A stretch of DNA of 59,301 nt, filler included, from Catajapyx aquilonaris (lineage: Eukaryota), in the NCBI GenBank assembly GCA_000934665.2. It is 2 parts of 2 records of this genome, joined end to end, with 100 filler letters (N's around TTAATTAATTAA, not from the genome) between each part and the next. Parts side by side here need not be neighbours in the genome. Positions count along the whole stretch, not along the records: positions 1 to 29,605 come from JYFJ02004768.1; 1 more part is not named here. One strand, given 5' to 3'. Below the pieces are notes generated by a model that worked only from the letters and a program-made list of their open reading frames with translations, searched no databases and was not told where the DNA came from. Positions 10,351 through 37,719 of the stretch are shown here, piece after piece. The translations under genes and the position numbers were made by a program. Positions within the stretch are counted from its first letter, which is position 1. Each line of letters begins with the position of its first letter.

Positions 10351-10789
10351 CCCTTGTCCACCCGCAAATTGTGTCCGCCTTGTACTGCCCGGTTTGCCAT
10401 TTCCACTCCGAACAATCCGGGGGCCATTATTCCGGTCTCTCTCCAAATGTGACACAAGGCGGCTGTAGGTCCTGGCATTCTTCCGGGCCGCAATCACGAC
10501 CAACTCGACGGCACTTTTCCCGGACACTCCCATTATTCGCGCCTCTACCTTTTTATTCCTACTGTCCCGAGTTACGGTCCCCAACTGTGTCCTCATCTAT
10601 CCCTGTGTCCGGGTGCATGAGAGAGACCATCCGGTGCCAGATTTCTTTTACATTTTTAGTTCCTCCGAGGCCAATCTCGCCATATGCCCAGACGGCGACA
10701 TTTTGCAGCAGGTCCTAACAATATTAGGAACTATATGACGTCTAAAATTATCCCATGAGAAGTGATATATCATTCAGGTCGACAGAGGG
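10351..10789. mobile_element. Degenerate piggyBac-like MITE
   Basis: Left end ATTA|CCCTTGTCCACCCG, right end CAGGTCGACAGAGGG|TTAA (imperfect TIR, TTAA-type flank); interior rich in short TGTCC/CCGG repeats. Confidence 0.35.
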
Positions 10790-11657
10790 TTAACAGTGAG
10801 CTGGGACGGATCGTGCGATGGCAAAGACGATTGAGACCCTCGAGCCTACTGAATATTTCATGCTGCTGCTTCAGAGTGTGTATTTATCCACTCAGGTGCA
10901 AGAATAGGGCCGGAGGGATATAATTATAGCGGTGGATGTTCTTTCGCATCTTTCTACCTCACCAGGATATTTCTACTTCTGCTTTTTAGAGAGAAAGGTC
11001 CATAGTGGATCGTGCAACAGGGAGTGATCCGCAGGTTGAAGATGCTGAGCTGAATTACAATGATCATAGAGCCGCCTCACATATGGACTCGTAGACAGGA
11101 ATGAAAACCGAACTTTTTTGGGCAACCATTGATCCAATGAGAGGATTTTATAATATATTTAATCGATAGCACGGCAAAGGAACTGCCACACTCGAACTCT
11201 TATTCCCTACGGGGACATGAGAACTCTACATACACCTCCCAGGTGCTTTTCCCCGATGCCCAACACAAAGGTGGCAAAAATAGCTTTTCGCGGAACCTTA
11301 TTTGAATAACGAGATTCGCATTTGAAAGGCTAAACCCCGTCCGCTGGTGCATGTTTGTGAATGATGCTCTTGCTTGCACTCCTAAATCCCACACTCCAGT
11401 GTGTGTACCAAGCTCGGTATTCACACAGATGAGGATCCTGAATGATGAATTATATGCGGCAGGTGCAAGGCAGCCATGTTGGTTTGTACCACAACCGGCA
11501 AAGGCCACTGTTCCAAAATTCCGTGTCTCAGGAATAGACAATGTTAAGGAAAAGTGTATTCTACCATGTTTCATAATATAAACTTGAAGAAATGTCTGGG
11601 ACAATTTTTAACTACTGGTTGTTGTTGATTTCCAGGAGAGGCTAGACACCGAGCAAG

Positions 11658-14600
11658 ATGGCTTCGGCAACAGACCCCAAGTCTACGAAAGTAGTGAACA
11701 TCGAGAAATGTTCCAACTTCATGCGCCAGTTCAGGGACCCGCAGAGCCGCGAGCTCAAAAAACTGTCGGCCAACCAGTTCATGGAAGTGTGGAGCCACTA
11801 CGACAAGGACTGTAAGTACATGTCCTCCTCCTCCAAGTGTTACCTCCAGGCCGCTGAGACAGGACCAATTCATTAATCCCATGGCGATGCAAAGGCCACA
11901 CGAGCACAAACATTGCTCCGGTAATTAAGTCAAGCGCAGGAAGAGGGCTCTGGCATCGATTAGCTGATTACAAGCCCTGAGATCCACAGTCCTTAATTGA
12001 ACCCGACTAACTCTTGATGGCCACCAAAGGTGTTTCGGATGCGCCACATGCAATAACCCTGGCCACATGCAGCCGTTGACAACCCGATCCGATCAGCTTC
12101 CTGGATAAGGCGAGAAAAGACCTGATTAATGTTGCTACCAGCTTCGAAGCTTCTATCACTCTAGACAAGAGGATTAATTAGCGGAGAGATAGGCTCGGAG
12201 GCCCCCCCAAACTGCGGGTACAGTTGCAATTAGGTGAGGAGCTCCGTCAAATCCGTCACTATCCAGGACCGGTCCGGTTCTGAATGCAGTGGGGCTTCGG
12301 ATGAATTCTCGGGCTTCCAGCATGCTCACCTTAATGATGATGGATGCCTGGCTCCAACCGCTCTCGAGGATCTATAGGCTCAGGTTGTCGTACTGTCTTT
12401 CAATACAAGTGCGGCAATTTTCATTAGGAGCACGCTCCTGTCGCAACAACAGAGTTCAAACTTTGCAATGTCTGCAGTGCAGTGGGGTGAATCCTTAAGC
12501 ACACACTGTGGAGTGTCCAGACAGGAAAGTGGTCATTGAGAAATCACATCGTCCAGACAGGCCCTTGAAGGGTGAATCGGTTAGGTCAGAAGGCAATCCG
12601 TCTGTCTGCAAATCGATTTCACTTCCATCACCACCTTTGTGATGGGTCCAATACTTTGGTGCTCTGACGTTCCCATACAAAATGCATGCCACCTCTTTTT
12701 CCCTTATGGTTAAATCGCGCGGGAATTTCCTTCCTGTCACCTTATTTTCTACCTCGTAGGAAGATAGCATAGGAATTTGCCAACCTATAAGACCCCGTTG
12801 GCTGTGTTTACCCATCGCTTCCCTTGCATTCTTCACTCTTGGGAAAACTGTTTGGGAGATGTGAACATGGATGAGCACCTTTGATATCGATTATTCATAG
12901 AAACCAGTCCAAGGATCTTGCCTGTCGCAAAATACACACAGCACTGTACGACCACAGCTCAGGTAACTCATTTTAGTTTTGATGTTCTGTCTCCCAGAAT
13001 ACCTGCTCTGCTGGATGCTCCGGAACACCCATGAATAATGCAATATCTTACCTGCTTGTTAAGTCTAACCTTTTCATCGGGCCATTGGTAACCCAGGCCT
13101 TTTAAATATGCAACGTGTTAAATACATCATATAATCTACAACTGTAAATCTAACTAAGCGACAATAATAATGTTGAAACATTACTGATAAATTGACTCGA
13201 TTGAGCAAACACGCTGTGAGCAAACTCTGGAAATATATGCAAATAATGCGCAGTGCAGTACTGTACAAACTGCATATATGTTTTAATAAAGCACTACCAC
13301 CTGCAGGTTATACGCAGCTATACAGGCAAGCTCTAACATGTGTAGACTCTGTGTGTGAAAGTGAAACTCTCATGCGGCACAATGCTTTGTTTAGTGCGGA
13401 CTTGGATTCAGAAATTGCGATCAATTTTGCAAAAAGGGCATGTTTTCCCCACGTGTTAACATGCTGCGGTATTCCACCGTTCAAAAACGGATGAATCGAC
13501 ACTGAGCATAAAAGGCCCATTTTTATTGCAACTGCGGATATTCGGTCCCAGTTTTTATTGAACCTGATGGAACCGCGAATGTGAGAAACGGGTTATGGCA
13601 TAGCTCCAGGTATCTGCGTCGCCAGGCGCTGCTTGATCATTCCGCGGTTTATCTGGATGGGAAAGATGCCTTGAAGTGCAGACAGGTCTTCTCCCCAACT
13701 TTCCACATTTATTTCTTCCCCATTTTGGTCCCTCTCCAAGAACAAGCAATCCGGGACACACGGTGTCCCGGACGCCCTCTTGAGACAACGGTCATCTAAT
13801 AACCGTCGCAATGATTTCCAGGCAACGGCTACATCGAGGGTTCCGAGCTGGACGGCTTCCTGCGCGAGTTCGTGTCCAGTGTCAACGTGAGCGACGTTGG
13901 CCCAGAGGTTGGTCCCCATCGGGTATCATCATCTGGTCACTCCAATCTTACGTTCATTGCAGGTGGTGTCGGATGATATGCTGGCCGAGCTGAAGCAGTG
14001 CTTCATGGAGGCCTACGACGACAACCAGGACGGAAAGATCGATATCCGGGAGGTGAGCTTCTATATGGAAGCTGGCCCTCCCTATTGGGGAGGGGGGGGG
14101 GATAATTTCCTTTTTGCGCAGCACACGATAGTCACACGGCACCTATTATTCGACTGTTTTTTTACCATTCATTCTCCCGTGCGTGTATGTCGTAAACAGT
14201 CGGTATGTCTTTGGGCCGCGCCCTAGACTCGGGTTTTATTGTAGGGACGGGCCTTCATTTGCGCAGGGTTTTATCACCTCGTCAGCAGTGCGTCGGAATT
14301 CAAAATGTTCACCTTTGTGCACAGTTTTGCGACCTACGGATCTGCTACAGTGTGTATCTCCAGATGGCGAAAATGGAGTCTGTTCCAGGGCAGAATAACA
14401 AACGACCCCATTTCTCTGCATAATGTTCGCGTTTCTGCTGGACAAAATGTATAGATATGGGACTTACTGGGCTCTACAAGGAGTTTCTTGGTAACCTCTA
14501 AAGGCTCGTAAATTGTCTCTGACCGTATTATTACCTGGTGCGCCATCATGGAATGTGATATACACCGAAAGGCGTGTCCAGAAGTACGAGTACATAATCG

Positions 14601-17600
14601 CCTTTATGCAATGTAAACAAGGTAGTGTTCAGATGTCGTATTAGTATATTCCAGAGGTACATTCTGGAAATAGGATCAAGCCAGTGATACAGTGAATTGA
14701 AAAACTGTTACACAAAGCCCTCCTTGTAATTTATGAATGACGCTTACGGGCATCCATGCTTCAAAAGCACCGCGCAGACTATTATTTCATCCACCCCACT
14801 GTTGATTTTATGTCGAATGACGAATGTATTGAAACTGCCCGTAGCTGACTTATAGCAATGAGATGAACTGTGGATTGGAGTACTGTACCACCTTTGTCAC
14901 CCGAGCTGAGATTCGTCTAAAGAGTCATAATGTACCTGCCCCTGCAGTTTCTTCCAGTATCACTTGATTTATTTATCTACGTCCCGGAGACGAAGAACCA
15001 AGTTTAGTTTCGTAGCTCATGCCGCAGTTCCCTTGTCTCCCAAGATCAATTCCGCCCCCGTGAAATTGTTCTCCTTTTCTCTGGAGAAAATCCTTTCGTC
15101 CTAGCAGTCGAGCGAAGGTACCGTAAAGCAACAAAAAAGAGACATAGCCTGGAGGCAAGAGCCGTGGATTTCTGCCCCGGGGTTCTGGTGTTCGGGGACA
15201 GGGAACAGCGCACATTGCAGATAAACCGAGCCAATCCATATCGACCCAACGACCTGGAAGATAGCGAATCCCGTAATTATTATTCCGGCGCTTGATAGAG
15301 CAAGGCACCTATTGTTGTCCACATACTCTTGTTCCACTCGCCCAATTTTTATGCCGAGAATGGGACCCACCGTGGTCGTTATATCCGTGTGCAAGCCATT
15401 ACGCACCTTCAGGATCTAAACTATCCAGAGGATATGGCAGAGGGCACGACTATTAGGAGACTAGACGTTCGATGGAGCCACCCCCCTCTTCACTTATTAA
15501 AGGCAGCGCATGTCGGACGTAGCAGCTCATGAATGTTGCAGCAATGAGACAAGCGAGACTTGCGATGTCGCATTATCGGAAGGAAGGAGGCGGCTTTGGC
15601 CTTGCTGTCATTAGGAGGCCTTGCCCTTTGGGGATTACGTGTGCCAGCTAGCAAAGTGCCTCAATTTTTAATCGACATACTAGGGAGGTCGTTGAATAAA
15701 CATTTGTGCAGGTTGAAGCATAAATAATTGTTTTATTTGACAGCTGGCTCAACTCCTGCCCATGGAGGAAAACTTTCTGCTGCTCTTCCGGATCGACAAT
15801 CCCCTGGAATCCAGTGTGGAGTTCATGAAGGTACAGCCGCTTAGTACGGATTAGCCGAAAGCGAATAGCTAAAAAAAATCGTCTATTTACTCCCTTCATC
15901 CTGGTTTAGATATGGCGTGAGTACGACACAGATGGCAGCGGCTACATCGAGGCAGACGAGTTAAAGGTGAGAGCACACCATACTGCTGTGGCAACAACCT
16001 CATTTTAAAATGCAATTTCTTTCCAGAACTTCCTGCGTGATTTGCTCAAGGAGGCCAAGAAGATACACGACGTCTCCGAAGACAAACTGATTGAATACAC
16101 CGACACAATGGTAAGCGCAAATAATTCGCGGGTCTCAGGTGTACTTATCCTGTTAATATGACAACACGGTCGTGGAAGCCTCGTTCTACTGGATTAACTT
16201 CAGCTTTTCGCATGTTTGACTCCACCTCTCGCTAAACCTATTCTCCGCCAGCATTCACCACTGTCATTTTAACGTCAAATCAATGGCATCCGGTGCTACG
16301 GCTGGAGATCTAAATAAAACGGATCTAAGCGGAACGTAATGCTATAGAAGCGCCAAATTGGAAATTTCACTGATTGCATCACAGCTAGGTACTCCCTAGA
16401 ACTCCTTGGATCAGGGCCCATCCAGATGATTACCTGCCATCAGTGCCACGGGTTGAAGCGCGACAACATCCCAGACCCATTTTAATCATCTAATAACGGT
16501 CTCTTCATCCCAACCCTATTTCCTGGACACGTCCAATAATCGTACTCTTTAGAAAAGGGGGGGCTTCCGTAGCCATTTATATCCTTGTCGATCAATAGTC
16601 ATTTCACTCAACAGGTTAGACACGCGAAAGTTTTGAACGTAAGGTGTGGTCCAGTTGCGATTTTATTTAGAAAATATATATCAGAAGTCAACAGGCGTGA
16701 AATAGCTTCCGTCATTAAGCCGCAATCAAAAGCAACACGTTTTCATGTTAGTTTGGCAGAGACTTCCAATTAGCAACTTCCGTAGCGCTATGAATGCAGT
16801 GACGGAGCTGCAGGAAGCTCGTGGAGGAGATACCGAATTAATTGAAGCCAGCAGCAGGCGACGCCGCATTGTTGGGCGGGTACCGGGCTGTGTATCATAC
16901 ACGCACGATATTCATAATGAATTGGCTGGTGGCTTGGATGAGGCTTGATTGGAATTCCGGTTTTGCCATAAATTCAGTTCCTCCACAGTACAGTTTCAAA
17001 CTTGCGATGAAAAGAGCTGCTCGCATTTTGCGTTGTTCGAAAGCTTCCAAGCGCGAATATGAAGGAAATGGGATGCATTAATATTACTCTTGGACTCGAC
17101 ATCATGGTTTTGACTTCTTAAAGTAGCATGTATCAAAGGCTAATGATGGTGTAAATGTAACCTTGGCCTGTGGCAGCCAGCCTGAAATTAACAATGTAAA
17201 TTACGCTTTCAGAGTATTTCAACGTCGCTAATTTATCTCTCCAGTGATTTCTAAAGCCAGTCTTTCGAGGGGGGGGGGGGGGACAGATTGGAGGAGAAAA
17301 ATTAAGCCCACCTCAGAGCAAGTTGTAAGACTCGAGGGAAAGGAGATCGTGCCTCGGGGTAACTTTACCTAATTAGAAGGCGTACAAAAACCGACTTTAT
17401 TTCGCCCCATTGGATAATTCTCAAAGTGGGGATTAGAGCTGGACCGTGACTTTTGTTTGCCTCCAGCCGAGTCGCGCAGGGCTGATTCTCCCATACCGAG
17501 TGTGGAATGTCCTTATTCCCTCAGGGGTAGGTAACTAACCGACTGGTTTTGGTCCAACCCACACGCAAACCTCGATCAATTGACTTGATCGTTCTGCGGC

Positions 17601-20600
17601 AGCTAAAAAAGCCTGATTCGGGCTCAAAAGCTGCTTTGAACCTATTACATTTTTTTTACGGATGTGAAATATTCCCCTGCAAAGTGCACGTAACTGAATC
17701 CTCGCATTTATTTTTCAGTTGCAAGTGTTTGACGCCAACAAGGATGGAAAACTGCAGCTGTCTGAAATGGCCAAGTGAGTAGACCACACGTTTGTTCCAA
17801 AGCACATCAAAGCTGTATGTGCTTCAATAAGCGATATGCTGGCCGCTGACAAGTTTGCAGCCCCCTGTGTGCTTCGTTCCTCTTCAAAGGCGGCGGGACC
17901 TTAATTCCTAGCCATAGTTGGCTGCAAATGCTCATGCAAAGCCTCTGAATTGGCATAATTCGGAGTCCGGGGGTAGTCGAAGGGAATTCTAATCGGTGTT
18001 TTCCTGCTGTACTTTTTAGGAAGGAAAAAAACACGGCTGTTTTCCCATTACAACAAAGAGGATTCTTATTCCAATCAGAATTTTTCCACCAATCACGGTG
18101 CAAATGGAAAAGAGCTTGCCACGTTTTATCTAACTAATTGCCAGTGCCGGCTCTTTGTGAAATGTCATTGGCGACGACACTTTGCTACCCTTGTTTGAAT
18201 ATCCAGCACTGGGTTTTATCAGTAGGGAAACATGCAGCAGCCCATAAGTGTAGAAGCCAATTATAAATGTGCCCGAAGAAGCTGCAAAGCGCTAATGAAC
18301 TAACTTTTGTGTTTTCCTTCAGACTTCTCCCGGTGAAGGAAAACTTCCTCTGCCGGCAGATATTTAAGGTAAGTTTCTCCTGACATTCGTGACATGGCCA
18401 TGGCAATTATAATAAGCATCTGAAGGTGCAACAAGCGCTGTGTTCAGGATATGCTAACTAATTATGACATAAATGAAATAGTCAGACTTGCATTGTGTGG
18501 CGAGAATAATGGAAAATGTTTAAACCCTGCTGCTTCCAAAATCCTTTGAGTTACTACAGAGTTTTGTCTTTTTCGAATTGACAGGAGAGCGTGGCAGTAA
18601 GTAGGCAACTTCTTGTAACACCCGTACGGTACAGTACAGCCATGGTGACATGGCTATTTCGGAAACGTAAATGGTCTCGAGAGACAGACTGCGCTTTGGC
18701 ACCAATGCTTGTACTGTTGACAGATTGGGAGCAAACCGATGTTCAGTCCTCTCGGAGCACTTTTGATTGCATTGTGACACTGATCTTGACAAATGGGATG
18801 GTTGATCCGTCGCACCCATTGCACGAGTCATCCACGCAGTTCAATTGCTTTTGCGCCTGCTCGTTGTGATGAGTCGACGTAATTAATTGGAAGCAATCGG
18901 TGCAAAACGGGACAACAGGCTGGGAAACCACTCTTATTAGACCGTCACATTTTTCTGTACTTATTGTTTATTGTCAAGCCATGGGCACACTTTTTATGGT
19001 CCACAAAAAAGTCACTCGTTTACACATTGGAGTCATCCTGCCCATTAGGTGACCTGTGTGGCAATAAAGGCTGGGGGTTGGCATAATGGGCAGGAGAGCC
19101 CCATCTGAAATCACCAAAATAAGTATTGTCATAAACCTGGAATCCCAAAACATTTTGAACCGTTTTGTACCGACAGTGACCGTGTAGTTTAGTCATGTGT
19201 GTCGTGGTGTCTTAATATAAGAATTAGAAGGAAAAAAAAACATTATAAAATATTACATATTATGTCGCCTGCGAATTTTTTGAATGCGACTATTGATAAC
19301 AATAATTATTGACTCTGCGTATTTCTTTCAATAAATAATAGCCACCGTACTTTGACGTCGCCGTAAGATTCTGTTGGGCTATGTGGGCAACACAACTTGT
19401 AAAACGGTTTTCGTATCCTAAAATTCTGCACGCAAGACAGAACATGTTTACAAAATACACTATATTGATCAACCGTGTACTACGTGCAGGTTTGACAAAA
19501 ATTGGTGAAATGGGTCTAGTGTTTCTGAGTGGATGTCTCGTGGTGGATCGCGCTGCTTGATTTGTACAACTCACTTGGCTTGATACTGAGAGCTAATAGG
19601 GATTTGGCTAGATTGGCTGACGAGGCCTGTTGATGACATGAACACAGTATCCCGGAGCGATGAACATTGCAAGCCAGTAGCGTAGGGGACGGTGAGAAGG
19701 CGCCAAGAGTTTGAGCACATGAATTGTAAGCGGAGATGATTATACGTACATTTACATAGACAAGTCGTGCAACTTTTTTATTGACGGTCGTCCTTTGTGC
19801 TGCATGCCGACGTCTGTACGCGTGATGGTTGTACTGGTGCCTCTGTTGTGTGCGTTTGTACCGTATGTTTATGTGTGTGTGCGCCGTGTGACCTGTGCGC
19901 ATAGATTGGTGCTCCGGTTATGACATGACCTGTGCTCACCTTCCCTCCAATTGTTTTATTATAGCATAATTCAGCACCAATGAGTATGGTAAAGCCCTCA
20001 TCTTTGTCTCTACTGCATGTGCTAATCACTTGCATGGTCAGTTTCCACAACATCTTTCTCTTTCACGCTACCCTTGTACGCACCACTCATTTTTAATAAT
20101 CATGTATTCGATAATATACTTTTTACCATGTAATCCTGACAAGTATTTGCCTTAAATATAGACCTAAACTATTGCAACATCACTCAACATCACTGTATGA
20201 AATGTATGTGATATAATTTATCTATTGCGTTTTACTCATACTTTGATATCACTTGTATGCAGTAGATGGCACAAGTTGGCTACGATGCAATTAACTCTGC
20301 TCACGCAGTGCTTCCATGTGTCACTCGCATCAGTCCTTTTACACAATGTCACACCGAATTTTGGGCAGGTCATTTGCATGCCGACTGCATGCAGGCCTAC
20401 CAAGTGTCGTTCCAAACATGACCTGACTTCATGTGCACAAATCAAGCCTGAAAAATAAGGCTGCCACATTTATTGCCAGGCAGCGTACGTAGTCACACAG
20501 ATGAATAGTTCTGTTCATCAGTCGAGACCAGAGGCCTCCGAGACGTGCCGACACAATAGTTGCCTCGGAATTGCCTCCACATCATCACTCTTCGCTCATA

Positions 20601-21654
20601 CGACGGATGTAGTTTTCTGCATTGTACGTAGAAGACAGAGAAGTAGTCCACTCTTGTAGTACTACTTCCAGCATGAAGTAGGGTTTGGGAGAGGTTAGCA
20701 TAGTGCCATAGTGGCTACTGCACTATAGCATAGTCGATCGGCTTTGCACTCAGCCACAATAGGACCAACTGGCTTTCTTTTCTATTAAAAAATACATTCA
20801 TTGATTAACTGATCAGAATTATGCAGATATGGTGGTCCTGTTGGGGGTTACATACTGCGGATCACACAATGCTAGAGGATGTCATTTGACCCGTATCCTT
20901 CCAGGGAGCCACGAAGCTGACCAAAGAGGATATCGAGAGGGTCTTTGCTCTCTACGACCGAGTGAGTATCTTCAATTTAGAACAACACTTTCCGAGAGAA
21001 TCGTGAGCTATACATGCTCCCTTTTCATTCTCAGGACAATAATGGAACCATCGAGAATGAGGAGCTGAGGGGCTTTCTGAAGGACCTCCTGGAGCTGGTC
21101 AAGAAGGTACACTGTGCAGTGCGTACTTAACCACACACCGTGACGTGTCAGGCACAGCCAGAGCTGCATGTGCACTAGATATTGTTTGTTTTGTCCGCTG
21201 TTATATCATATGCTAACTTATTCTCGCATAACTTGCGTATTCATAACAGTCTTACATTCTTTTCTACACACTGTAAAATGATGAGAGATAGGCAAAATTA
21301 ACTTCACTACCATCAATAATTATTACAGTGTAAATAGTGACGACACGAGTCCAAACTCCCCGAGAGCAGAAATTATTTGCATGGTAGTTGGTGTGCTTGG
21401 CCAGTACGAGTTTGGTGTCGCATCTGTTGTAAAAGCATGAGGTGTTGGGCCATCAGGCGGCTGAACAACCTTCTCCGTTTGTTTACATCCAGGATTACGA
21501 CACTCAAGACCTGGCGGACTTTGAGGAGACGATCCTCCGCGGATGCGACTTCAACCGAGACGGGAAGATCAACAAGAAGGAGTTAACCATGATCCTCCTG
21601 GCCCTGTCCAAGCACAGCCAGGATGACGAGGCTGCAGCCGGGAGCAGTCAGTGA
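11658..21654 (+). CDS. Cbp53E: Calbindin-32 / Cbp53E-like six-EF-hand calcium-binding protein (calbindin/calretinin/secretagogin family), 11 coding exons, 316 aa
   Basis: Exons read by eye, all GT-AG with consistent phases: 11658-11811, 13822-13907, 13963-14052, 15744-15830, 15910-15966, 16027-16110, 17719-17774, 18323-18368, 20905-20961, 21035-21106, 21493-21654 (951 nt). Six EF loops: DKDCNGYIEGSE, DDNQDGKIDIRE, DTDGSGYIEADE, DANKDGKLQLSE, DRDNNGTIENEE, DFNRDGKINKKE. Family linker motifs LLPMEENFLL and LLPVKENFLC. An acceptor TTCCAG ending at 11635 suggests an upstream non-coding exon. Confidence 0.95.
18585..18596 (+). CDS. Candidate alternative 12-nt microexon of the calbindin gene (ESVA)
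   Basis: gttttgtctttttcgaattgacAG|GAGAGCGTGGCA|GTAAGT: pyrimidine tract, CAG acceptor, consensus donor, length divisible by 3, lying in a phase-0 intron (18369-20904). Confidence 0.55.
19905..19916 (+). CDS. Candidate alternative 12-nt microexon of the calbindin gene (IGAP)
   Basis: TAG|ATTGGTGCTCCG|GTTATG, preceded by a UG/UGC-rich stretch of about 138 nt with no AG dinucleotide (19765-19902); frame-preserving; donor weak. Confidence 0.4.
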
Positions 21655-23762
21655 AGAGTCTTATAATAATAATATATTATAACAACACTCTCTCCCAGTT
21701 CCCCCAAACACCCCCCTTAACATACAAACAAACAAACAAAAAAAAGTCCTGTAAACTGTAACCCCTCCCCTCCCTTTGAACCCGCTCCACATAACTATAT
21801 CATCCAATCACCACAAAAACTTCCTATACCTAGCTCCGCTATTGTTTGTTCTTGTGTCCGTTTCTTTATCTGGGGCTGGCTGGCTGGCTGGCTACGACCG
21901 GTACGAGGAGGGGCCGTACCGTATCGTACGTAAGTGCTTCTTGTCGCAGGCATGGCAGAAGGGCGTGGGGGTGGAATAATAACATCCATCCATCGGATGA
22001 AATCAGGTTGACCTCACCACGCAGAGACACCCGAGTGCCATTCGATCTCTGACGATTCCGTACCCGAGTACATGGCAGTACTTGAATACCAGCAGCCTCT
22101 TGAGTGTCCCTGTGTGGCTCTGGATCAGCTGACAAAGAGAGCTGCACAGAGTACTGTACGTACGTACGTTGTTATTTGCTGTTGACATGGCGGTTGTTGA
22201 AATCATACTATACATAATTATATTATAATGCTATTATTATTATTAATGATGATGATATATATCACGAGTCAAGTTGCATATCGGAGAGTTTGTGAGCCAG
22301 AAGTGTAGTGGGGTTTAAAATTGGGGGTCAGGCAGAGTGAGTCGATCGTTACTTTAAAAGAAAACAATGGCGGCAGTGTAGCGCAGTTCCCGCCATCTGT
22401 CTGAGCGTGGGGGAAGAAAAAGGAAAAAGGAAAATGTCCCCGAAACAGTGCTCTCTCTGTACACACTGCAGTTGACTAGGCCGGGATGGGGAGGAGGCAG
22501 TGGAGCAGTAAGCCAAAATAAACTGAAATGTATTTTAATTCGGGCCGGGGTTGCCGGTCAGTCAATATATGCGTTGTGGATTATTATCAACGAATCGATG
22601 TTGATTTGGCATGAATATTAACCAAGAGTAGGGATTATATCACAAGGATCATCACATTATCTTTCATCATCACCTGCATATGTGATGTACAGGTGACAGT
22701 TCACATTTCTTGCCAGTGCTCACCTCTTCCTGCAGGCCGTATTGATTCAGGAGTGCAGCATACCGAATTTGCAGTATTTCATAAACATATCTTAACGCCT
22801 CAAGTCCATATCTGTCTTAATGGCTGCTAGTGTTCCATTCAGGTAATACGTCTCTTAGCTACACCGGCCCATATCCGAATAGTTACCTGCGTTTACGATT
22901 CTGCATCGGAACAATAACCCTCGACACTAAAGCATAAACGATGAACAAGTCTTTCTGACAAACGAAGAATTGTTTAATTTTAGATTGCGCAGATCAAAAT
23001 CACAAACTTGTTGTACAACTTTCAAAACATCAAAACTTGCCTGCTGGAGACGTTTCTGAATCAAATCAGTAGCTCGTATACATGCCTGTAAACTTTCCAG
23101 TGATACTGTCATGCGGAATTATCAAAGCATCCTGCACCCGTCACTCACTTTTGCGACATATCGAACTTTTAATGTTTTGAAGACTGGATGGCAAGGGACC
23201 GATCAACTCATAAGAGAAAGACTGGTTTGTTTTTTTTCATTGGCAACAAACAAGCCGTGTTGTTTAAAAATATTTCACTGAGTGTTTGTCACAATGGCAG
23301 TTGGAACGTGCTGCATATCCCAGAGTTTAATAACAGCCAACATAGTATGATAATCCCTTGTTCCAATGAATTTTGGTTCAATATATGTCAGCCTCAAATT
23401 ACGTCCTGAATCAGCCTGGTTAATAATATATTTTGTTAGTAGACTCATTCCATTATGGAGGTGTGAAGTGGTTATAATTACATTGCATCCATTGGTCACC
23501 TTACACAGTTGACTGCCTATAAAGATGAGAAATTGTTTTACACATACTCCTGTTAACTTTTTGAAATGTTTATTATGAAAGTCGTAAATCATCAGTCAGA
23601 AACTACCAAATTGGTTAAGTGTTAACTATTAATGTATGGACTACACAAACAACTGTTGGAATAACCATTCACTCGAATATATCGGAGCAAATGTCATGTA
23701 AGCCACACGCAAGAAGAGTTCAGAAGACAATCAGACAGTCTGTGTTGGATTGCAAAGTTCCC

Positions 23763-23791
23763 CATCATCATCGCCACCACCATCATCATAC

Positions 23792-23837
<46 letters not shown>
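23763..23837. repeat. (CAT)n microsatellite in the probable calbindin 3' UTR
   Basis: Imperfect CAT/CAC units followed by about 15 perfect CAT units (23792-23837). Confidence 0.9.
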
Positions 23838-23838
<1 letters not shown>

Positions 23839-24912
23839 GAATAAACTATAGATTTGTTTCGCGCTTGCTCATTATAACCAAAGAAATCATCATCTTAGAC
23901 TGAATCAGAGGCCACTCATAAAACGATAAAACTGCACTCGTTAGTATGCCGGTCTAGTAGGCTCATGTACTGTACTGCGTAATTAATGGATATTGCGTGT
24001 ATGTGGGTGTTGTCACAGCCGCACTGCTGCAGTATTGTAATCACAAACCGTATATTTTTTACTGTACTGCAGCCCCGGTGAAATATTTTTACTCGACTAT
24101 GGTGTGATGTACCGTTTTCACACACTTGCACAAGAAGAGTTTTGAATTTTTGAGCGTTTCTTTTTTTTTGGTTACTTCAATTAGGCCAATTCTCTCGTGC
24201 AATTTCATTACAAATTTACAACTACGTGCATTTAGAATCACAAACCGTGTGTATAAATTTATTGCGGATATCGGCAAGACGACAGTGACGTATACTTCCT
24301 TCATGCCAAACATTTGTGATGCGTTGTACTACTACTTCTGATACTCTTTCTTATTGTTTCACTTTCTTTGTACGAAGATGGGCAAAAAAACTCCAAGGGA
24401 GTAGCATCGTGAGAAAGAAGAAAAAAACATGAGGTAACAACGCACAAGTGAGACTTGAACTGATTTCAAACCCATTCTGAGAGATATATCTGCTGCATAA
24501 AAATACGTTGATATATTATATTCCTCGCCAGTTCACCATCTTATTTTCCGCATGAAATGGCTGACTCCTCCTGGGGGGGAAAAATATGGTGCTGCTAATA
24601 TTGTAGTGTAGAACTGTGTCTTCTACTTATGACCTTAGGCTTACAAGTCACACTTCGTCATAAGCTAAGGTAGTTGCCAAGGCTGTGTAAAAGTCAGTCC
24701 CCATAAAATATAGATACGGCCAATGGTTGTCCCGCGGCAAAAAAAATGAGATTTAAAAAATGTGCAAGGGAATTTTTTCCCTGTGTGCCACAATGGTACG
24801 TACTGTACATGTCTCTTCGCTCATACTTTTGCGCTCTCCTTCACTGTACCTCTTCTTGGGTGGGTTAATTCAGCTGCGTAGTCATGTATGTGGCTGTCGC
24901 TGCATGAAAAAA

Positions 24913-29007: not shown

Positions 29008-29605
29008 TAAGAGATCATTTTAAGTAGAGGCAATCATGGGTATCCGCAGCATAGTTACCGAGATAACGTCCTTCAAACACAGGGTATAAAATATCCTGGC
29101 ACGCATATGCGTCCCTCCAACCGACCTTGACTTTTCCATTAAGGTGCTACAATGTAATTTAATTTTAATTTACGATCCTGTTAGGTGTATTATGGAATGA
29201 CCTACGGCTCTAGGCGATGGAAGTGTCGTAAGCAGTATCCGAAACCTACGGTATAAGCAGGAATAACGCACTTTTTTATTTAATGTTAATTATCTCTGTA
29301 ACTATGCGGCGGAGACCCATGATGAGGGTACTTAAACTGATTGCCTAGGACCTCTCTATCATTTCCCAAAGCGACGGTACGTTACATTTCCGAACCCTGT
29401 ATAAGCCTATACTCGGCCTCCTCGGATATCCTCCTCAGACCCAAAAGAGTTCTATTCAACATGCATATTCCAGATTTTGTGGCTAGATATACTTTCGCAC
29501 TGGGAACAAAAAAAACCATCATACACATTTTTCGAGATTCTGGACCATTGTTAGTTAGAGCTTAGAGGATTGTATTGCATGCAATACATTGTGTCTTAGA
29601 ACTTC

Positions 29606-29705
29606 NNNNNNNNNNNNNNNNNNNNNNNNNNNNNNNNNNNNNNNNNNNNTTAATTAATTAANNNNNNNNNNNNNNNNNNNNNNNNNNNNNNNNNNNNNNN
29701 NNNNN
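29606..29705. other. Assembly gap with artificial six-frame stop linker
   Basis: 44 N + TTAATTAATTAA (29650-29661) + 44 N = exactly 100 bp. Confidence 0.97.
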
Positions 29706-29929
29706 CGGGAACTGATATCTTAAAACGGAATATGCCAAAAAAATCCAAAAAATATGAGCGAATTTATTATGTAGTTTCCAAAATGAAGGCTAGTTCCCCA
29801 TTTTGTTGCTTTCAAGGAAGATCCTATTTAATCTGGTAAAACTTGTCTGAGGGTTCAGTTATATTGATAACCTTCTAGCAAGGCTCTGTGTGTGTTTCTG
29901 CTATTCACAGCAAGTGAATTATATTACAG

Positions 29930-37719
<7,790 letters not shown>

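Follow-up and report, generated by a model that had tools for sequence, protein, structure and literature searches.

Alternative Linker Microexons in Arthropod Calbindin-32 and Their Probable Use in the EF4-EF5 Intron of Catajapyx aquilonaris

Introduction

The present analysis concerns a stretch of 59,301 nucleotides (nt) from Catajapyx aquilonaris (assembly GCA_000934665.2), hereafter the window, which consists of two parts joined end to end and contains a gene for calbindin-32, a neuronal Ca2+ buffer and sensor. A first-pass annotation of this DNA had pointed to three tiny cassettes flanked by AG and GT in intron 8 of the gene, named here ESVA, IGAP and MAQ after the peptides that they encode, and had read them as a cluster of frame-preserving neural microexons. 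Our results suggest that intron 8 is probably a conserved arthropod site of alternative linker microexons, at which the present species, too, splices at least one short exon. Microexons at this junction appear in the existing annotation of many species and in a Drosophila catalogue.

The Calbindin-32 Gene and Its EF4-EF5 Junction

The window gene is the arthropod calbindin-32 (Cbp53E) orthologue, with 11 coding exons and six EF-hands. The spliced model comprises 948 nt and 315 codons, exon 1 having its ATG at 11658 and its donor after 11811. Over at least 300 residues the protein is 85-90% identical to the calbindin-32 of beetles, springtails, cockroach and Daphnia, and the last exon, used alone as query, matches named calbindin-32 at E 1e-25. 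The homologue P0061 matches the solved structures of secretagogin (2be4, 6jlh) and calbindin (6fie, 2f33) with E values of 1e-62 to 1e-72. The loops of the EF-hands are readable in exons 1/2, 3, 5, 7, 9/10 and 11, the Pfam EF-hand match for exon 11 alone being under the curated cut-off.

One RNA run was found (X1). It is small and its kind and tissue are unrecorded, and its contigs are spliced and 99-100% alike to the window. These contigs support the junctions 13907/13963, 14052/15744, 15830/15910 and 15966/16027 in the 5′ part of the gene, and 16110/17719, 17774/18323, 20961/21035 and 21106/21493 in the 3′ part, so that, among the coding junctions between exons 2 and 11, only 18368/20905 is left unbridged. 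The shortest intron of the gene (13908-13962, 55 nt) is among those spliced in the RNA, and its unusual GTTGGT donor, to which the first-pass annotation had likened the donor of MAQ, is indeed in use.

The unbridged junction is that of intron 8 (Table 1). Exon 8 closes on the K codon of ..RQIFK, in agreement with the ..ENFLCRQ[IV]FK of the aligned homologues, and exon 9 opens on a complete codon, the G of GATKL... The intron is thus in phase 0, as had been annotated, and the RNA contigs back both of its outer edges. Because of these phase-0 edges, any stop-free cassette with a length that is a multiple of 3 preserves the reading frame. The insertion point is located past the loop of EF-hand 4 (exon 7) and its exit helix and ahead of the entry helix of EF-hand 5, the loop of which is split over exons 9 and 10. 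As the point falls between the EF4 exit helix and the EF5 entry helix, the name EF4-EF5 linker is correct.

Insertions at the Same Junction in Other Arthropods

The comparison comprised 243 proteins from two homologue searches and two cluster look-ups. Of these, 232 could be parsed at the junction, the other 11 being fragments, genomic read-throughs or motif variants. In 74 of the 232, an insertion of 3-10 residues separates ..R..F[K] from G[AS]TKL at precisely this point, a share that is inflated because the query of the second search bore EGIE. The alignment of calbindin-32 isoforms for insertions after RQIFK, which the first-pass annotation had called for, has therefore a positive outcome. 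The phase-0 intron that holds the three annotated cassettes is found at this position, between ..R..FK and G[AS]TKL...

The 12-nt insertions are EGIE (16 proteins), EGID (10), EGFE (4), EGME (4) and DGIE (3), with EGLE, EGIS, QGME, YGDE and SAAE occurring once each; the 9-nt insertions are VSE (6) and VSQ (4), with GDL, GEL, GDI and GME as single cases. Longer ones are seen in bugs (ELTTE, EITSE, DITTE), in mosquito-like proteins (EGRIDEE, EGKIDEE) and in a barnacle (GDSEW), while insertions of 6-10 residues are present in a millipede and one further protein. The 12-nt peptide varies little among hexapod proteins, and some lineages have divergent 12-nt forms (SAAE, TVVE, YGDE). The junction is also used in a spider (SAAE), in decapods (VSQ) and in springtails (EGLE, VSE). 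EGID occurs in ten Drosophila-clade proteins of 313-315 amino acids, which are labelled isoform X1, isoform B or hypothetical.

The isoform sets annotated by NCBI for Agrilus planipennis (X1-X5), Cloeon dipterum (X1-X3) and Thrips palmi (X1-X3) are among the closest known parallels, with 9- or 12-nt insertions at the same phase-0 junction as the window. In Agrilus planipennis, X1 and X5 contain VSE followed by EGFE, X2 contains EGFE, X3 contains VSE and X4 neither, which implies that two microexons are used combinatorially. Combinatorial inclusion, as claimed for the window, has thus a precedent at this very site, but with two microexons; a cluster of three is unsupported, and MAQ is disfavoured by the evidence given below. 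In Cloeon dipterum, the three isoforms have EGIS (X1), VSE (X2) and no insertion (X3). The insertions of these sets are of the types VSE and EG[IFLM][ES/D], whereas the window has no such cassette. The tandem-acceptor variant QGME/GME of Thrips is the only parallel to the cagtag that precedes MAQ in the window. Such NCBI isoforms, produced by RNA-guided annotation in many species, also qualify the statement that standard gene finders would miss these exons, which holds in part.

Genomic copies of the microexon were sought in 37 metagenome loci that encode relatives. An EGIE exon, ..ttcttcatttctcttcaattacag/GAAGGGATAGAA/gtaagt, with 38 nt free of AG before it, is present in three termite-gut contigs that are nearly identical (L006-L008); this exon, also read as ..tctcttcaattacag/GAAGGGATAGAA/gtaagt, stands 3756 nt ahead of exon 9. 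In locus L013, a 912-nt intron includes cag/GAAGGTGACATC/gtaagt (EGDI, 12 nt), preceded by 136 nt free of AG. A possible DARE cassette is present in L015, and transcript contigs encode TVVE (L004) and GEL (L018, L020). From these copies, the conserved 12-nt exon typically has a GAR first codon, a pyrimidine tract and a GTAAG donor, with a long AG-free zone ahead of it in some lineages.

Relation to eMIC-Dependent Microexons

The Drosophila melanogaster orthologue is recorded in Table S2 of PMC8797185, where Cbp53E has a 12-nt exon (DmeEX0003740 in VastDB) of type MIC and group eMICsens. Judging from the 12-nt length and the known isoforms, this entry presumably corresponds to the EGID exon, which in the 314-amino-acid Drosophila isoforms is placed exactly between ..RQVFK and GATKL... 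The Drosophila 12-nt exon would then respond to the neuronal eMIC (Srrm234) splicing activity. The link to eMIC microexons drawn by the first-pass annotation stands to this extent for the gene family, the three cassettes of the window being candidate exons. The Drosophila exon has the same length as ESVA and IGAP, which encode neither EGID nor EGIE, and the eMIC sensitivity class in that table belongs to the Drosophila orthologue only.

According to PMC8797185, fly eMIC exons are preceded by an extended stretch free of AG, have UGC motifs near their 3′ splice site and combine a strong upstream donor with a weak one of their own, their weak 5′ splice sites being unlike those of mammalian microexons. 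The vertebrate neural microexons controlled by SRRM4/SRRM3 are described there as exons of 3-27 nt that preserve the frame of neuronal genes and follow UGC motifs and extended AG-free zones. No link between vertebrate calbindin or calretinin and a microexon of the SRRM4/SRRM3 type is shown in the present analysis. The prior record of the Drosophila and arthropod site consists of the row in the supplementary table of PMC8797185 and of automatic isoform annotation; a full-text literature search, which covered no supplements beyond that of PMC8797185, found no discussion of the linker microexon in the text of papers.

Candidate Cassettes in Intron 8

The three cassettes of the first-pass annotation are present as it described them, and a fourth candidate of 24 nt was identified here (Table 1). 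ESVA, IGAP and MAQ belong to the 23 stop-free cassettes of 9 or 12 nt with AG and GT flanks that the intron contains.

Table 1. Features of the EF4-EF5 linker region in the window (cassettes are written as acceptor/exon/donor).
Feature	Position	Strand	Properties
Exon 8	18323-18368	+	46 nt; ends ..RQIFK, phase 0; donor AAG/gtaagt; RNA joint 17774 to 18323
Intron 8, phase 0	18369-20904	+	2536 nt; EF4-EF5 linker; homologues bear alternative microexons here
ESVA, 12 nt	18585-18596	+	cag/GAGAGCGTGGCA/gtaagt; 70% pyrimidines upstream; best classical signals
AG-free zone, T/G-rich	19765-19902	+	138 nt; 8 TGC; upstream of IGAP
IGAP, 12 nt	19905-19916	+	tag/ATTGGTGCTCCG/gttatg; weak donor GTTATG
HNSAPMSM, 24 nt	19965-19988	+	absent from the first-pass annotation; 75% pyrimidines upstream; 58 nt AG-free; donor GTAAAG
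Unspliced intronic cover	20089-20550		one X1 contig, 460 nt, depth 3.65
MAQ, 9 nt	20266-20274	+	tag/ATGGCACAA/gttggc; acceptor is the second AG of cagtag
Exon 9	20905-20961	+	57 nt; GATKLTKEDIERVFALYDR; RNA joint 20961 to 21035; homologue alignment

IGAP alone among the three combines a long AG-free zone with UGC near the 3′ splice site. The zone upstream of it, the length and UGC richness of which were correctly annotated, has a TGC density of 59 per kb compared with 23 per kb for the intron as a whole, and two TGC are within 25 nt of the AG. Together with its weak donor and with the strong upstream donor of exon 8, IGAP displays the feature set given for fly eMIC exons in PMC8797185. It is also the sole cassette of the form AG/xGxx/GT in the intron. 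The surroundings of ESVA are of another kind, with 21 nt free of AG upstream and with TGC absent from the 30 nt that precede its AG; its architecture (12 nt, GAG as first codon, pyrimidines, GTAAGT) resembles that of the termite-gut EGIE and the L013 EGDI exons. For MAQ, the AG-free run of about 100 nt noted earlier does exist, with a length of 99 nt, but it stops at a CAG (20260-20262), and the MAQ acceptor is the next AG. Use of the first AG of cagtag would place an in-frame TAG in the exon.

In terms of the encoded peptide, no cassette of the intron is of the form VS[EQ] or [EDQ]G[IFLM][EDS], ESVA coming nearest. The BLOSUM score of ESVA is 9 to EGIS, the best 12-nt score of the intron, reached by 3.1% of 320 null 12-nt cassettes, and MAQ scores 7 to VSQ, the top of 14 cassettes of 9 nt, a value that 5.9% of null cassettes reach. 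Peptide likeness was considered as proof for ESVA and MAQ and was rejected, as neither score is significant once the 9 and 14 cassettes of the same length are counted. Searching the intron for the codon patterns VS[EQ], [EDQ]G.[ES] and G[DEM][LIE] gave five matches, all lacking AG/GT flanks or out of frame. An Rfam search of 18300-21000 returned nothing up to E = 1, no repeats were found within the intron, and a blastn comparison of the intron with these 37 loci from metagenomes revealed no conserved island, the best match being one of 29 nt (E 0.01) outside the cassettes.

Contig Ends in the RNA

The ends of the X1 contigs at the unbridged junction are of particular relevance. Contig 2, which covers exons 2-8, includes exactly the 46 letters of exon 8 and none beyond, ending at 18368. 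Contig 4, which runs from the 3′ untranslated region (UTR) back through exons 11, 10 and 9, contributes 58 letters there, namely the whole of exon 9 and one preceding G (20904). We take the X1 contigs, obtained from Logan, to follow paths in a k=31 graph and to stop where that graph branches. Mixtures of transcripts were simulated on such a graph and scored by the number of letters beyond exon 8 and before exon 9, for which the observed value is (0,1).

Skipping alone produces no break in the simulation, and skipping with intron retention gives (1,2). Mixtures of skipping with ESVA and with MAQ give (1,0) and (0,0), respectively, while skipping with IGAP gives (0,1), equal to the observed ends. 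The same (0,1) is obtained for skipping with 19965-19988, 19965-20036 or 20817-20831. The modelled ends are thus a hint that points to an alternative exon in intron 8 and is compatible with IGAP; for the sample in question, they likewise hint against a position of ESVA or MAQ directly before exon 9. No X1 contig covers ESVA, IGAP or 19965-19988, which is uninformative on their use because the junction contigs to be expected would be pieces of at most 30 nt.

The only intronic stretch of the gene with a contig is 20089-20550, where Rfam finds nothing; the contig might represent pre-mRNA, a stable fragment of the intron or an independent transcript. Two letters are deleted from it at 20270, within MAQ, a change that would disrupt the MAQ frame and that may be an error at such a depth.

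Which Cassette Is Used

We consider it likely that at least one alternative microexon is spliced in intron 8 in the window species. In the mechanism proposed here, alternative microexons would add a few residues to the loop that links the EF-hand 4 exit helix to the EF-hand 5 entry helix; elsewhere among arthropods a 9-nt exon of the VSE/VSQ type appears to be followed by a 12-nt exon of the EGIE/EGFE/EGID type, with a single one, both or none included. The reading that the window species shares this site is favored by the occurrence of microexons at the junction across hexapods, decapods, barnacles and a spider, and by the X1 contigs, which break at both exon edges although the other junctions of exons 2-11 are bridged.

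A number of observations weigh against this reading. The count of stop-free AG/GT cassettes of 3-30 nt, in multiples of 3, is at chance level: the intron has 63, its reverse complement 66 and its dinucleotide shuffles 68.2 ± 8.8, with 220 out of 300 shuffles reaching 63, so the cluster that the first-pass annotation had taken as a signal is not one. The density of 24.8 per kb compares with 22-41 per kb in the other introns of the gene, an AG-free run of at least 138 nt occurs in 23 of the 300 shuffles, and intron 1 holds one of 165 nt. Sequence statistics alone do not pick out ESVA, IGAP or MAQ. With nine 12-nt cassettes, a score like that of ESVA is expected by chance about 1 time in 4, and IGAP, which shares only the G at position 2 with the known insertions, has a score of 2, reached by a full 33% of null cassettes. 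The intron has no VSE/VSQ or EGxE cassette with AG/GT flanks, in a protein otherwise about 88% identical to hexapod proteins. The insertion is absent in all 14 cladoceran-type proteins listed, and in five mite-like metagenome loci exons 8 and 9 are fused with no intron. Among the X1 contigs, none crosses the intron, either directly or via a cassette. The letter rule at the contig ends is satisfied by 19 cassettes that are in frame, free of stops and no longer than 200 nt, and the contig-end argument, involving one small run, an assumed k=31 contig model and weak stops, is a weak hint at best.

The chance-level count, the missing EGxE and VSE types, the cladoceran proteins and the lack of inclusion in any X1 contig all speak for a gene in which exon 8 is joined straight to exon 9, with ESVA, IGAP and MAQ as AG..GT pairs that arose by chance. 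Such direct splicing would, however, leave unexplained the contig breaks at the two exon edges, which skipping alone or with intron retention does not reproduce in the simulation, and it would set this species apart from the many arthropods that bear microexons at the site. We therefore regard it as improbable. The opposite extreme, in which eMIC activity would control the combinatorial inclusion of ESVA, IGAP and MAQ alike as neural microexons, is in keeping with the two microexons of Agrilus and with the fact that ESVA and MAQ lead the 12-nt and 9-nt cassettes, respectively, in likeness to known insertions. Yet ESVA stands first and MAQ last, opposite to Agrilus, where VSE precedes EGFE, and at most one of the two likenesses can consequently be homology. 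In addition, the CAG before the MAQ acceptor would, if used, give an in-frame stop, the intronic contig with its possible error lacks two letters inside MAQ, and ESVA or MAQ directly before exon 9 conflicts with the contig ends in the simulation. This threefold eMIC-controlled scheme is hardly credible, and neither is joint use of all three cassettes in general.

Another alternative is that the microexon in use lies outside the first-pass annotation, most plausibly at 19965-19988, an unlikely but genuine contender. This cassette starts with C and ends with TG and so satisfies the contig-end letters, its 3′ signal is the best of all cassettes that fit, and its donor is no worse than the GTACAG and GTACAC of the gene itself. 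Among the homologues there is, on the other hand, no 8-residue insertion and no similar peptide. The cassette also begins only 48 nt past the IGAP donor, a gap that is smaller than the shortest intron of the gene (55 nt), and for this reason IGAP and 19965-19988 can hardly be separate exons of one transcript.

Returning to the reading that at least one short exon is spliced here, one independent line of evidence speaks for ESVA and one against it, the same holds for IGAP, and 19965-19988 is a serious rival. IGAP is our tentative candidate, its use being quite possible without being the expected outcome. Use of ESVA is unlikely, as is that of 19965-19988, and use of MAQ is very improbable. The use of any of these cassettes in the window species, its regulation and any effect on Ca2+ binding, or on the cooperativity and target binding that the first-pass annotation had suggested, are inferred. 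A possible, though doubtful, scenario is that of microexon turnover at a fixed protein position, in which this lineage would have lost the EGxE exon, almost invariant elsewhere in hexapods, and would use an unrelated 12-nt exon, IGAP, with its complete set of eMIC-type signals, possibly beside a diverged ESVA. If this is true, the feature conserved across arthropods is a tunable length of the EF4-EF5 linker in calbindin-32 and not the inserted sequence.

The linker site, found across hexapods, crustaceans, a spider and a millipede, would offer a clean system for studying the effects of 3-7 added residues on Ca2+ binding or partner choice. For annotation, it serves as a warning that the gene probably has isoforms that are missed by models without RNA support; sequence signals alone cannot tell which isoforms the window gene makes.

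Other Features of the Gene and the Window

The contig depth in X1 is 35 over exons 9-11 and the 3′ UTR and 10.6 over exons 2-8, a rise that may stem from bias towards the 3′ end or from an additional transcript with its start in intron 8. The 3′ UTR is longer than 2.1 kb and reaches at least 23759.

At the 5′ end, 278 letters of contig 1 before 11636 align to nothing within 10500-24500, which indicates a 5′ UTR exon farther upstream. The same contig ends at 11762 within exon 1, and contig 2 opens with two unaligned letters before exon 2, a pattern that points to alternative first exons or to a polymorphism close to where exon 1 ends. Isoforms with differing N-termini are known among relatives, e.g., Cimex and Agrilus.

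Other junctions of the gene vary among homologues as well. Decapod isoforms (Procambarus X3, Macrobrachium X2) have an insertion of 9-10 residues at the exon 2/3 junction, after ..GPE. The decapod homologues P0073/P0076 and P0115/P0111 have two versions of a 19-residue segment matching exon 5 of the window (15910-15966), which, as far as the protein sequences go, look like mutually exclusive duplicated exons; the window exon is flanked by introns of 79 and 60 nt, in which a second copy is absent. In Cimex lectularius X5 (P0024), the whole 19-residue segment of exon 9 is missing and ..RQIFK is joined to DNNGT... The exon 9/10 junction is unbroken in X1, and an exon-9-less form is not indicated in the window species. 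Exon 4 (15744-15830) encodes ..LLLFRIDNPLESS.., with I where 29 of 29 aligned homologues have F (invariant column F136).

Beyond the part boundary at 29,605 of the joined stretch, and just after 90 N letters at about 29600-29700, an open frame on the plus strand (29918-30301) encodes a PH-domain-like segment, which we read as another gene further along.

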